NCBI GenBank assembly: GCA_963665115.1
Contig: OY762007.1
Location: 7,180,679-7,220,678, forward strand
Length of the DNA stretch: 40,000 bases
Direction of reading: 5' to 3'
Source of the DNA: an uncultured Rivularia sp.
Lineage (GTDB): Bacteria > Cyanobacteriota > Cyanobacteriia > Cyanobacteriales > Nostocaceae
The notes under the pieces are model-generated. The model was given only the letters and a program-made list of their open reading frames with translations, ran no database searches and had not been told where the DNA came from. Shown in pieces: positions 3,024 through 39,335 of the stretch (the first letter of the stretch is position 1; each line of letters begins with the position of its first letter). The position numbers and the translations under genes were made by a program.

Positions 3024-4093
3024 GTGACATCTTCTACAATTAATACAGGCAATATTCCTCAAGATGCATCATCAGAGGAAATAACCAAACTTCCCTTTAC
3101 TCTGGGGGATGTAAAAGCAGCAATTCCAGCAGAATGCTTTCAGCCTCAAGTGTGGAAATCTCTGTTTTTCTTCTTCCAAGACATACTAATAATTGCTGGA
3201 CTTTATGCTTTAGCCCATTACTTAGACTCCTGGTTATTTTTTCCCATTTTCTGGGTAATGCAAGGAACGATGTTCTGGGCTTTATTTGTAGTAGGGCATG
3301 ATTGTGGACATCAATCATTTTCTCGTCACAAATGGTTGAACGATTTGATTGGACATTTATCTCATACACCGATACTTGTTCCCTATCATGGATGGCGGAT
3401 TAGTCACCGAACTCACCACAAAAATACTGGTAGTCTGGAAAATGATGAAAGTTGGTATCCGATATCGGAATCAGCTTACAACGAAATGGATATAGTTGAA
3501 AAAATCGGCAGACACTATCTGTTTTTACTGGCTTATCCGGTATATTTATTTAAACGCTCCCCAGGAAAAACAGGCTCTCATTTTTCACCCAGCAGTCCCC
3601 CTTATTCAAACCCTCGGAAAAATGGGATGTGATTACCAGCACCGTACTTTGGAGCGCAATGGTTGGTTTGCTGGCTTTCCTAACCTATCAATGGGGTTTC
3701 ATGTGGTTTCTTAAGTACTACGCTGCTCCATACATTGTATTTGTAATTTGGTTAGATTTGGTAACATTTTTACATCACACCGAGCCAGATATTCCTTGGT
3801 ATCGCGATGGAGAATGGACTTTTCTTAAAGGTGCGCTTTCCAGTGTCGATCGCGATTATGGTTTTATCAATCATATTCACCACGATATCGGAACTCATGT
3901 TGCTCACCACATTTTCTTAAATATCCCTCATTACAATTTGAAGAAAGCAACTGAAGCAATTAAGCCTGTTGTAGGAGAGTATTATCACAAAACTGACGAG
4001 CCAGTTTTAATTTCTCTTTGGAATTCTTTTAGAAAATGCCACTTCGTTCCAAATGAAGGCAAAAAGGTTTATTACACGTATCACTCGAAATAG
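3024..4093 (+). pseudogene. desB: Acyl-lipid omega-3 (Delta15) desaturase, split by one frameshift
   Basis: ORFs 3024-3632 and 3629-4093 together carry HDCGH, HRTHH and HVAHH boxes. They are collinear with DesB as I recall it (…GSHFxPxSPLFxPSEK…TST…). The reading frame changes at the C5 run 3597-3601. One added base restores SSPPLFKPSEKWDVITST and a 356-aa product. GTG start. Confidence 0.85.
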
Positions 4094-4111
4094 GTGTAGC
4101 TGTGTAACAAA

Positions 4112-4167
4112 GGTTCGTAGTAAAGGCTTAAGCCTTCAATCAAAGGACTGAAGTTGTTACTGCAAAC
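4112..4167. repeat. Dispersed structured repeat (GGTTCGTAGTAA… family), copy 2
   Basis: Starts with ggttcgtagtaaaggcttaagcctt (inner palindrome AAGGCTTAAGCCTT). The outer arm is degenerate. Confidence 0.45.
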
Positions 4168-4381
4168 TATTATCAATCAATTGGTGCGTGACGGCAAAAC
4201 TTATTTACAGCCCTTTGCAGCTAAATGAGGTACAAAGCTATATTCCGAAAGTCTTGTGGGATGGGCATCCCTGCCCGTCAGAATGTACTTCACCAAAACT
4301 AAATATGCTGTATCTCGTAATCTTTCGATAATTTATCGTAGCCGTCACACACCCTACAATTTGGAAATTTACGATAATAAA

Positions 4382-4410
4382 AAACCCGGTTTTTCCAAAA
4401 AACCGGGTTT
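4382..4410. terminator. Palindromic hairpin between convergent desB and desD (probable bidirectional terminator)
   Basis: aaacccggtttttccaaaaaaccgggttt has a GC core with A/T runs on both sides. An exact reverse-complement copy lies at 28524-28552. Confidence 0.6.
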
Positions 4411-4450
4411 CTGTATATGTTAAATCTTTGTCGAATCTTACGGTTGAAGT

Positions 4451-5569
4451 TTAGGAAACTTGGGCTGTAACTGTATTTATTTCCGGAGGATTGCCCATGA
4501 TTCTTAACCAACGATAGTTAGCGGCAATTGCTTTTGTAAAAGTTGGGTATACGTTGTACTGCACATTGTATTCTTCACAGACTTGCGCTAATATCGGAGC
4601 AATTTCTGGATAATGTATGTGACAAACATGAGGGAATAAATGGTGGACGGTTTGATAATTAAGCCCGCCCAGATACCAGTTTAAAAATTTGTTTTCTGGA
4701 GCAAAGTCAACTGTTGTTTTTACTTGAGCAATTGCCCATTCATCATCAACTGTATTATCTGGTAAACTTGGTTCGAGAAACTCTGCTGGTTCTAACACGT
4801 GAGCAAGCATAAAAACATTGCAAATTATTATGCCATAAACCATATTTACGATACATAATCCGATAATTACTTCAATAGGACTGTATCCCAAAGCTAATGG
4901 TATACCTGCGTAAAGTCCCAACCAAACAAATTTTGCACCTATTAAAGTCAATAATTCTAAGGTATTTGGTTTTGGGATATTATATTCGTAATATTTGCCT
5001 TTAAATAAAATAAGCTTGACATCAGAAAAAGACCAATAAAATGGAATTATTGCATATACAAAGTTAATCAATAAATGCTGAAATTTATGATATGACTTAT
5101 GCTCTCTTGCCGGAGACATTCTGACTAAACCACTACCATCAATTTCTACATCATGACCTAATATATTCGTATAGGTATGATGCAAATAATTATGACGAAA
5201 TTTCCATAGATAGCTGGAAAGACCTATGACAAAATCATAAGTTAAACCAATAGTATTATTAACCCATTTTTTCTTAGAATAACCGCCGTGGTTGGCATCG
5301 TGCCCTACACTAAAGCCTACACCAGCAAAACCCATTCCCAGCATGATACAGCCAAGTATTTTCATCCACATTACTGGGGGAGAAAAAAGAATAAATATCC
5401 AGGAAAAAAATACCCATCCTAAGATAATTGCACTTTTGAAGTACATGGCAGGATTATCTCTGGGAGTAAGATTTTCAGACTTAAAATAAGCGTCAACTCG
5501 TTTATTTAATTCTTTTCTAAAGCCAATATTTTTGGCAAAAGTTACTCTGGGAGCTTGAGTTTGGATCAT
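4451..5569 (-). CDS. desD: Acyl-lipid Delta6 (front-end) fatty-acid desaturase
   Basis: 372 aa. Boxes HDANH, HNYLHH and QTVHH (Q replacing H in box 3 is the front-end desaturase hallmark). Closely collinear with Synechocystis DesD as I remember it. No cytochrome b5 domain. Confidence 0.85.
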   Translation of the reverse strand: MIQTQAPRVTFAKNIGFRKELNKRVDAYFKSENLTPRDNPAMYFKSAIILGWVFFSWIFILFSPPVMWMKILGCIMLGMGFAGVGFSVGHDANHGGYSKKKWVNNTIGLTYDFVIGLSSYLWKFRHNYLHHTYTNILGHDVEIDGSGLVRMSPAREHKSYHKFQHLLINFVYAIIPFYWSFSDVKLILFKGKYYEYNIPKPNTLELLTLIGAKFVWLGLYAGIPLALGYSPIEVIIGLCIVNMVYGIIICNVFMLAHVLEPAEFLEPSLPDNTVDDEWAIAQVKTTVDFAPENKFLNWYLGGLNYQTVHHLFPHVCHIHYPEIAPILAQVCEEYNVQYNVYPTFTKAIAANYRWLRIMGNPPEINTVTAQVS

Positions 5570-37260: not shown

Positions 37261-37606
37261 CCCGATAAAATAAAATAGAAACTTTGCGTATATTCTAAAA
37301 ATGTTTTTTTCTATACGCTTCCGTAATCTTACCGATTATCTTTCTCATTTATAAGGATACTTTATTTTCTATCCATAATTCTACTTTGCAATTCAGCGTA
37401 AGCATAAAACGGAATTAAAATTAATCAAATTATCAAGATAAATCGAAAATAAGGGGTTAAACCCCTCCGAGCTTAAACATACTAAAACTACCAAGTATGA
37501 ATACGCTTAGATATTGCATCATTCTCAACAACAGCATTAGAATGAATTCTCAGCACAACAAGTACGGTTATGGACATTTTTTTTATCTAAGTTATAAAAA
37601 TAAGTT

Positions 37607-38017
37607 ATGAAAATTTTTCCTATTAGACTTGAATCCAATGCAGATTTAAGAAAGAGTTTAAAAAGCTTTGCAGTTGAAAAAAATATTCAAGCAGGATTTA
37701 TATTAACTGCGGTTGGTAGTTTAAAACAAGCAACAATCCGCTTCGCCGATCGAGACAATACTACAGTCTTAACCGAAAAATTTGAAATACTTTCTCTTAA
37801 CGGAACTTTAGCTACTACAGGGATGCATCTTCACATGGCGATCGCCGACAGTAATGGTAAAGTTATTGGCGGACACCTCAGTGATGGTTGCATTATTTAC
37901 ACTACCGCTGAAATCGCGATCGGGATTGCTGAAAATTTCAGTTTTCATCGAAGCTTTGACGAACAAACCGGATTTAACGAGCTTGAAGTTATATCGTTAA
38001 TTTCAACGAGTTTGTAG
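37607..38017 (+). CDS. PPC (DUF296) domain protein
   Basis: 136 aa. …AVGSLKQATIRFADRD…FEILSLNGTL…GMHLHMAIADSNGKVIGGHL…TTAEIAIG is the PPC/DUF296 pattern. Confidence 0.75.
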   Translation: MKIFPIRLESNADLRKSLKSFAVEKNIQAGFILTAVGSLKQATIRFADRDNTTVLTEKFEILSLNGTLATTGMHLHMAIADSNGKVIGGHLSDGCIIYTTAEIAIGIAENFSFHRSFDEQTGFNELEVISLISTSL

Positions 38018-38066
38018 TAGCGCCGTCTAGCGGAATTCGGAGGGGCTAAAGCCCCAACTACGAACC
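38014..38066. repeat. Dispersed structured repeat (…GTAGT … ACTACGAACC family), copy 3
   Basis: gtagtagcgccgtctagcggaattcggaggggctaaagccccaactacgaacc, with inner palindrome GGGGCTAAAGCCCC. Confidence 0.5.
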
Positions 38067-38089
38067 ATAGGGAATAGTAATCGATTTTA

Positions 38090-38284
38090 TTATATTTTTC
38101 TTTCTATTTGAGCATCTTTCAATCCGTTAAAAGTAGCTACCACACTATGAGTTTCGACTTGGGTAATCGGTGCGGGTTTCATTTCCCCTCGAAAGTCTAG
38201 AATTTGTACTAATACAAGATAAGCAACAGCTAAAAGTATAGAAAATACACCCGTGATAATCGCAACAATTTTTCCTCTATCCAT
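38090..38284 (-). CDS. Small single-TM hypothetical protein
   Basis: 64 aa with one clear hydrophobic helix (IVAIITGVFSILLAVAYLVLVQIL). No family recognised. Confidence 0.35.
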   Translation of the reverse strand: MDRGKIVAIITGVFSILLAVAYLVLVQILDFRGEMKPAPITQVETHSVVATFNGLKDAQIERKI

Positions 38285-38338
38285 GAGTTTTCCCTCTTTT
38301 TAGAGATATTTCACCATTGCCATAATAATCGATAGAAT

Positions 38339-39335
38339 TTAACTATTGAATTTTGAGGTGCGGGGATTGATTTTAGAATCTAAATATGCTTTTAAAAGTA
38401 ATACGCGACTAGCAAATTGTTCGCAAAGCCGAAATCCACAAATATCCTGAACTAATTTGTACATTGGTTTTCTGGTTTTATGCTTGAAATCAGGACATAA
38501 AGCTAAGGATTTTTGTGAAAGTCGTAAGTATTCCGGATAGTCTATATACATATAATCTCTGGCTAACTCAAAGTAGCCATGTGCTAAAGCACGACGATAA
38601 TTAATTGGAATCTTCTGCTGATATCGTTTTAATAATTTTTTTTCTACTTTTTGTAGAACTTTGCAATGATTTTCTACCCAACGCTCTTTTGAAGCAGTTG
38701 ATACTGTAACGTTGCCGTATCTTCTATATATTGAATAACAACCGGGTTGATAAACAACTTTTGCACCAGCCATGATGGTTGAAATGAAAAAATCTCTATC
38801 TTGTGCAGCCGAGAAATTTTCATCCCATCCACCGCTTTTCTCTACAGCCGTTCTTCGATAAAATAAGGATGCAACAGCAGTCCCACCAATTTTCGATTAA
38901 AGATTGCAGAATATCTGCTTGTTTTCCAGGCTTTTCTACCTGTTCTAAGAATACTACTCCATTAGATTGATGTCCTTGAAATCGCCAATCACCGTAAACG
39001 GTATCTGCTCCTGTTTCTTCTAAAAAATTGATTTGTCTTTCTATTTTCTCTGGCAAGATTAAATCATCTGCATCTAAAAATTGAATATATTCTCCTTTGG
39101 ATAAAGCAAAACCTCTATTCCTCGCGTAGCATCCACCTTTATTTTCTGAAAGGCATTCCCAAGTAATTTTATCTCCATAGCTTTTAATAATTTCCATAGA
39201 GTTATCTGTCGAAAAATCATCAATTACAATGATTTCGATATGAGGATAAGTTTGTTTTAAACAGCTATCAATAGTCTCTGCTATCCATCTTTCGGTGTTA
39301 AAACAAGGAATAATTATGGAAACTAGTTTTTGCAT
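38339..39335 (-). pseudogene. Family 2 glycosyltransferase, frameshifted
   Basis: The N-terminal ORF has VSIIIPCFNTERWI…IIVIDDFSTD…FLDADD (GT2 DxD). Removing one C of ccc 38882-38884 joins it to the 144-aa ORF via …ENWWTAVASLFYRRTAVEKSGGWDENFSAAQDRDFFISTIMAGAKVV…. Corrected length is 331 aa. Confidence 0.8.

Follow-up and report, generated by a model that had tools for sequence, protein, structure and literature searches.

The stretch of DNA analyzed in the present study (the window) comprises 40,000 nucleotides of an uncultured Rivularia sp., and corresponds to positions 7,180,679-7,220,678 of contig C1 in the genome designated G000, which was deposited as a single contig of 8.69 Mb with a GC content of ~38%. 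The names carried by clustered proteins place the genome among the heterocystous cyanobacteria of the marine Rivularia/Calothrix clade. A number of its genes, including that for the Mg-chelatase subunit ChlH, are interrupted by shifts in the reading frame, which raises the question of whether these breaks are genuine lesions in the chromosome or errors in the deposited sequence. An earlier note on the window listed ten breaks and favored systematic insertion or deletion (indel) errors over pseudogenization. Comparisons with related genomes suggest that the frame breaks are very probably consensus errors of the single-contig assembly and that the genes of the organism are intact. They also support the view that the defect is a specific over-calling signature (+1 or +2) that is common to three assemblies.

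Frame Breaks in the Window

Syntenic DNA from five relatives of the same genus (Rivularia/Calothrix clade; 88-95% nucleotide identity) was compared with the window, and all indels were tabulated. The relatives, designated G003, G005, G007, G009, and G013, were assembled in 1, 4, 1, 280, and 3 contigs, respectively, and between one and five of them supported the analysis of each site, depending on the orthology available. Frame switches were checked by six-frame translations, gene pieces were assigned using Pfam, and proteins of the relatives were aligned to the window.

All ten of the frame switches in the earlier note were visible in six-frame translations at the positions that it gave. Nine of the ten were found to be length differences private to the window against one to five relatives, and were located exactly at the runs that had been named; the hicA site was comparable with paralogs of ~80% identity only. 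The list of ten was incomplete because an eleventh break was present at 35157-59 in a gene for a dynamin-like GTPase. The sites are as follows:

3597..3601, forward strand: run of five C in a desB-like omega-3-type fatty-acid desaturase gene (~3024-4093); 2 extra C, absent from 5/5 relatives.
7448..7450, reverse strand: AAA in AGAAACCC, in a small gene without a family match (~7251-7686); GAAC has become GAAAC through one extra A.
8500..8503, reverse strand: GGGG within the 3' portion of the lumazine synthase gene ribH (~8401-9001); one G too many turns GGGAC into GGGGAC.
13160..13164, reverse strand: reading frame broken in a hicA-like gene, which is located upstream of hicB; the window has 2 bases more than the paralogs.
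15461..15468, reverse strand: GGGGCCCC in chlH (Mg-chelatase H, ~14237-18288); 2 extra C at 15465-66, with GGGGCC in 5/5 relatives.
16962..16963, reverse strand: chlH; one T missing, TT here and TTT in 5/5 relatives and in a metagenome contig from ENA.
17751..17753, reverse strand: chlH; one extra C (AGTCC to AGTCCC), with CC in 5/5 relatives.
20271..20273, reverse strand: Uma2-family gene (~19933-20593); one extra T (GGTTCC to GGTTTCC).
29752..29754, forward strand: gene for a cytochrome P450 (28966-30358); AGGGAC, within the AGHETSA motif, contains one extra base.
35157..35159, reverse strand: dynamin-family GTPase gene (~860 amino acids [aa], ~34761-37380); one extra T (GGTTC to GGTTTC), absent from 4/4 relatives.
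38882..38884, reverse strand: family-2 glycosyltransferase gene (~38342-39344) with a Glycos_transf_2 domain; one extra C (AGTCC to AGTCCC).

With the hicA site set aside, the events consisted of +2 insertions at 3597 and 15465, a 1-nucleotide deletion at 16963, and +1 insertions at all other sites. Neighboring open reading frames (ORFs) were assigned by Pfam as fragments of single genes (the desaturase in two pieces, the P450, the glycosyltransferase, Uma2, and the tail of ribH), and at each break the proteins of the relatives matched the window as abutting segments in differing frames. The peptides that the earlier note had reconstructed across the junctions mostly recurred verbatim in the intact proteins of the relatives, whereas the second ChlH junction was recovered only as a 10-residue core.

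In the desaturase gene, proteins of 359-379 aa from the relatives matched frame 3 of the window and then frame 2, abutting at 3597..3601, and a FA_desaturase domain was detected. The earlier note had correctly placed this break and called for one additional base, which is equivalent modulo 3 to the removal of the 2 extra C that were actually present. The extra A at 7448 was absent from 4/5 relatives, the ORFs of which (151-174 aa) cross the site, and G003 carried the identical extra base. At ribH, the extra G at 8500-8503 was absent from 4/5 relatives (G005 is locally divergent), and proteins of 193-200 aa, which have a DMRL_synthase domain, continue over 8502-8401 in a different frame. The three breaks in chlH split it into four ORF pieces, one with DUF3479 and three with CobN-Mg_chel (Pfam). 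The missing T at 16963, which is the sole deletion among the events in the window, directly follows a copy of HIP1, GCGATCGC (window 16955-16963), and an error mode of another kind, or an effect of modification at HIP1, may be responsible.

Regarding the remaining sites, G009 was the sole relative with an orthologous Uma2-family gene and has TT at 20271-73; the Uma2 domain is in the downstream piece. The extra base at 29752-54 was absent from both relatives available for comparison (G003 and G007), and a p450-domain protein of 461 aa in G007 crosses the site. The corresponding ORF in G003 was just 348 aa, suggesting that this assembly has an additional private break farther downstream. The dynamin-like gene is split into ORFs 35146-37260 and 34752-35045, with a Dynamin_N domain, and proteins of 844-861 aa from the relatives extend into the latter ORF. 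The extra C at 38882-84 was absent from 4/5 relatives, while the identical extra base was found in G007, another single-contig assembly. No ortholog of the hicA-like gene around 13160 was found in the five relatives; its paralogs in G013 and G007 (~80% identical) have an intact ORF of 99 aa at this position, and the context of the break does not correspond to the error signature described below.

The hicA-like gene is in the interval between ribH and chlH (window ~9,790-14,100), which carries Uma2, copies of hicB/hicA, and small toxin-antitoxin-like pairs, and is a variable islet. Its conservation among the five relatives was patchy, and its pieces matched many paralogous loci.

Genome-Wide Rate and Direction of the Events

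The analysis was extended to the whole genome using ORFs of at least 150 aa in 800 kb of G009, for which G000 orthologs were identified by tblastn and aligned as DNA, resulting in a sample of 379 genes and 422 kb of aligned coding sequence. The indels found in G000 in this sample were:

+1 insertions: 45.
+2 insertions: 6.
-1 deletions: 1.
3-nucleotide indels: 35 extra, 38 missing.
6-nucleotide indels: 4 extra, 12 missing.

Frameshifting insertions thus outnumbered deletions by 51:1 (binomial p 2e-14), whereas 3-nucleotide indels were symmetric. The genome-wide tabulation of frameshifts against run context that the earlier note had proposed revealed that 53/379 genes (14%) were broken in G000, and that the events were restricted to a narrow class of contexts. 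Their rate was approximately one per 8 kb of coding sequence. The estimate in the earlier note of one event per ~4 kb was, therefore, close to the density of the window itself (approximately one per 3.6 kb), but was ~2-fold higher than the genome-wide coding rate. Within the window, chlH has a GC content of 43% and hence more G/C runs.

We also performed a reference-free count of abutting long ORFs on the same strand with frames offset in the manner expected after a 1-nucleotide insertion (+1-type junctions):

G000, 1 contig: 75 per Mb.
G003, 1 contig: 105 per Mb.
G007, 1 contig: 82 per Mb.
G013, 3 contigs: 10 per Mb.
G009, 280 contigs: 9-12 per Mb.

The +1-type junctions in G000 were evenly spread across all 0.5-Mb bins of the chromosome. 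The excess over the clean relatives was ~550 +1 events together with ~130 long-armed events of the +2 or -1 type, which suggests that the total number of events in G000 is roughly 700-900.

Sequence Context

The contexts of the events were G/C runs that follow G, GA, or GT (GTCC, GACC, and GGCC, with the complements GGAC and GGTC), together with GAAC/GTTC. The number of events per C/G run increased with length, from 6e-4 at length 2 to 2.7e-3 at 3, 8.6e-3 at 4, and 1/38 at 6 or more. When the left flank of a C run with an event was A or T, G was present at -2 in 20/20 cases (GACC/GTCC) against a background of 9% (p 2e-21). Among A/T runs of at least 2, all seven events were in G-AA-C or G-TT-C, and none occurred in ~54,000 others (Fisher p 1e-8). 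In the genome-wide coding sample, no events were detected in A/T runs of 3 (~14,500), of 4 (~4,900), or longer; A/T runs of at least 3 are the commonest runs in this genome of 38% GC, and yet they were spared. The earlier note had attributed the breaks to homopolymer-prone sequencing chemistry; a systematic error was borne out, whereas a generic homopolymer effect was not because A/T runs of at least 3 remained untouched.

Most sites in the window belong to this signature: AGTCC to AGTCCC at 17751 and 38883, the GGAC type at 8501 and 29752, GAAC/GTTC at 7448, 20272, and 35158, and G/C runs at 3597 and 15465. A signature site was present in 72% of the zones around +1-type junctions in G000 versus 28% for the other junction type. 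Reverse complementation maps the motif class onto itself, and the class has no tie to the coding strand.

A cause related to flow order (of the 454/Newbler type) was considered and dropped because contexts that are equally "consecutive-flow", such as T-CC-G, were not enriched. The context might reflect DNA base modifications that are common to these Rivularia/Calothrix strains and disturb single-molecule base-calling, an explanation that we regard as improbable; just ~0.1-1% of the signature sites were affected, which argues that any effect of modifications is weak or partial at best. If it were true, the error map would amount to an indirect footprint of the methylome.

Genes Affected and Signs of Decay

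The broken genes in the sample included those for the translation initiation factor IF-2 (infB), lysyl-tRNA synthetase (LysRS, lysS), DNA polymerase I (PolA, polA), and LL-diaminopimelate aminotransferase (dapL), as well as those for MenD, RecN, SigC, and CtpB. Those for IF-2, LysRS, PolA, LL-diaminopimelate aminotransferase, MenD, and RecN are sole copies. IF-2 and LysRS are indispensable to a cyanobacterium, as is ChlH for phototrophic growth. No second copy of IF-2, LysRS, PolA, or ChlH with >40% identity was found in the genome; the other matches to ChlH, the gene of which is broken three times, were paralogs with 27-40% identity. One of these, a ChlH/CobN-family paralog at ~863,081-866,651 of contig C1 (34-40% identity to ChlH), matched in two frames, and is probably another case of the insertion defect.

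The ratio of non-synonymous to synonymous substitution rates (dN/dS) against G009 was 0.10 for broken genes and 0.13 for intact genes, indicating that selection is not relaxed. Ten apparent in-frame stops were found: three were in a single repeat-rich ORF, and the others fell within the first 20 or the last 4 codons. Outside the repeat-rich ORF, the 379-gene sample had effectively no nonsense mutations in the middle of genes, versus more than 50 frameshifts. A mixed spectrum of lesions with a deletional bias, as expected of genome erosion, was not observed in this sample, and indispensable genes were neither intact nor backed up, since chlH, infB, and lysS are each broken and have no second copy.

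The Same Signature in Other Assemblies

The other two single-contig assemblies, G003 and G007, had insertions of their own of a similar kind in the genes of the window, which break desB, ribH, chlH, and others. In G003/G007, GTTC is changed to GTTTC at positions equivalent to 8941, 14275, 36924, and 34371 of the window, GGAC to GGGAC at 3197, and GGAAC to GGAAAC at 6656. At 14275, G007 alone has G in the place of A, which creates GTTC, and the extra T is also found in G007 alone. No private coding frameshifts were detected in the same window genes of G005, G009, or G013. Some events were shared, namely by G000 and G003 at 7448, by G000 and G007 at 38883, and by G003 and G007 at 3197 and 34371. 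This distribution is incompatible with any tree, and, thus, a recurrent error driven by context fits better than inheritance.

A long-read-style metagenome contig from a related strain (the ENA contig mentioned above; ERZ25039505 contig_10817) had a private extra base in chlH, at a position equivalent to 15431 of the window, and its chlH was called as genes of 975 and 381 aa. The 381-aa fragment was rejected as support for the break at 15465 because this contig has an in-frame GGGGCC at that position and its own break is 34 nucleotides away. In this contig, two ORFs with a Rep_1 domain lie immediately downstream of chlH, in the place that the toxin-antitoxin islet occupies in the window. CheckM contamination was also considered as a proxy for split markers, and was dropped because G013 showed 4% contamination with a clean junction count.

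Alternative Explanations

The preference of the earlier note for technical error over pseudogenization was upheld by the private indels, the breaks in essential sole-copy genes, the lack of nonsense mutations, dN/dS, the 51:1 bias, and the strict context. According to this explanation, one base, and sometimes two, would have been over-called in a narrow class of contexts during base-calling or consensus building, and each gene is open along its whole length when the extra base is disregarded. The technical cause was inferred indirectly from the private indels, the genome-wide defect, the dominance of insertions, the strict context, and the absence of signs of decay, and several points weigh against it. 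Exact-protein look-ups for another assembly of the same strain matched only the contig of the window. The hicA break at 13160 and the deletion at 16963 are outside the signature, and hicA and Uma2 belong to classes of genes that are prone to natural decay. In G005 (4 contigs), both junction types were raised in C2:1,000,001-1,200,000, to 60 and 65 per Mb, and, thus, the link with the type of assembly is not perfectly clean in view of this 200-kb sample; these counts could reflect a different error profile or a region rich in pseudogenes. Furthermore, the profile reported for PacBio RS II, with G/C deletions and A/T insertions (PMC8574707), does not match the signature in the present study.

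Genuine erosion, in which the frameshifts are real and the genes are pseudogenes, for example in a symbiont or a long-kept culture, would account for the presence of the breaks in the deposited sequence and for the dispensable nature of some of the genes affected (hicA, Uma2, the glycosyltransferase, and P450). The earlier note had taken interrupted frames shared with related strains as a sign of such erosion; just 7448 (with G003) and 38883 (with G007) were shared, the other sites with orthologs were intact in the relatives compared, and the shared sites are phylogenetically incompatible. Erosion is also difficult to reconcile with the breaks in essential sole-copy genes (chlH three times, infB, and lysS), with the lack of mid-gene nonsense mutations and the unrelaxed dN/dS, with a genome of 8.69 Mb, which is not reduced, and with the occurrence of the defect in all three single-contig assemblies, but not in G009 or G013. 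Bacterial mutation usually has a deletional bias, to which the 51:1 insertion bias is opposite. Taken together, erosion is considered to be very unlikely. Programmed recoding, in which ribosomal frameshifting or slippage of transcription at the motif would compensate for extra bases that are real, receives virtually no credence: the strict sequence context alone speaks for it, whereas ~14% of genes would require recoding, some of the events are +2, and the closure of the motif class under reverse complementation fits an artefact of DNA reading rather than a translational signal. Moreover, the sites are not conserved, with relatives of 92-95% identity being in frame at every one of them, and this non-conservation effectively refutes recoding.

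A mixture of causes, in which most breaks are assembly errors and a minority are real lesions in toxin-antitoxin or mobile-type genes, is possible, albeit doubtful. Its main candidate is hicA, the 2-nucleotide difference of which is outside the error signature and was compared with paralogs only, and the islet at ~9.8-14.1 kb varies in content among the relatives. Sequence comparison at hicA is compatible with either error or mutation. Uma2 is a possible second candidate, but its site is an exact instance of the signature (GGTTCC to GGTTTCC). For the window as a whole, we favor consensus errors as the source of the breaks.

Consequences for Annotation

The breaks carry no biological feature, and their value is a quality warning, which has practical weight and adds no new biology. 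With genes split in G000 and junction counts raised in G003 and G007, neither the pseudogenes called nor the numbers of genes in these assemblies are reliable, and this extends to ORF boundaries and candidates for "novel short genes". The caution advised by the earlier note on pseudogene labels, gene counts, and ORF boundaries is, therefore, well founded, with approximately one conserved gene in seven being split genome-wide in the G000 assembly, and annotations of G003 and G007 need equal caution. Split genes with a junction at a G/C run of at least 3 or at GAAAC/GTTTC need to be read through before they are interpreted.

Comparison with Known Systems

The truncation of essential genes by systematic indels despite high coverage has been reported for long-read assemblies (ARAMIS, PMC8574707), and tools for the correction of such assemblies have been described (Kastor, PMC12007338; Homopolish, PMC8011154; Polypolish, PMC8812927). 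No usable genome paper on single-contig Rivularia/Calothrix assemblies was found in the literature.

The defect in G000 resembles the indel errors of long-read or unpolished bacterial assemblies in that the events involve single bases, fall in short runs, and are found genome-wide. As in such assemblies, essential genes are split into adjacent ORFs, the same contexts recur despite coverage, and the errors are revealed by relatives. It differs in that ~98% of the events are insertions, which in this AT-rich genome are confined to GAAC/GTTC and to G/C runs that follow G, GA, or GT, and in that long A/T runs are spared; as described above, it does not match the PacBio RS II profile (PMC8574707). 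A resemblance to the eroding genomes of symbionts is limited to the frameshifting of many conserved genes: in contrast to these genomes, G000 has no nonsense or deletion component, shows no relaxation of selection, carries breaks in essential sole-copy genes, is not reduced in size, and has events biased toward insertions rather than deletions.

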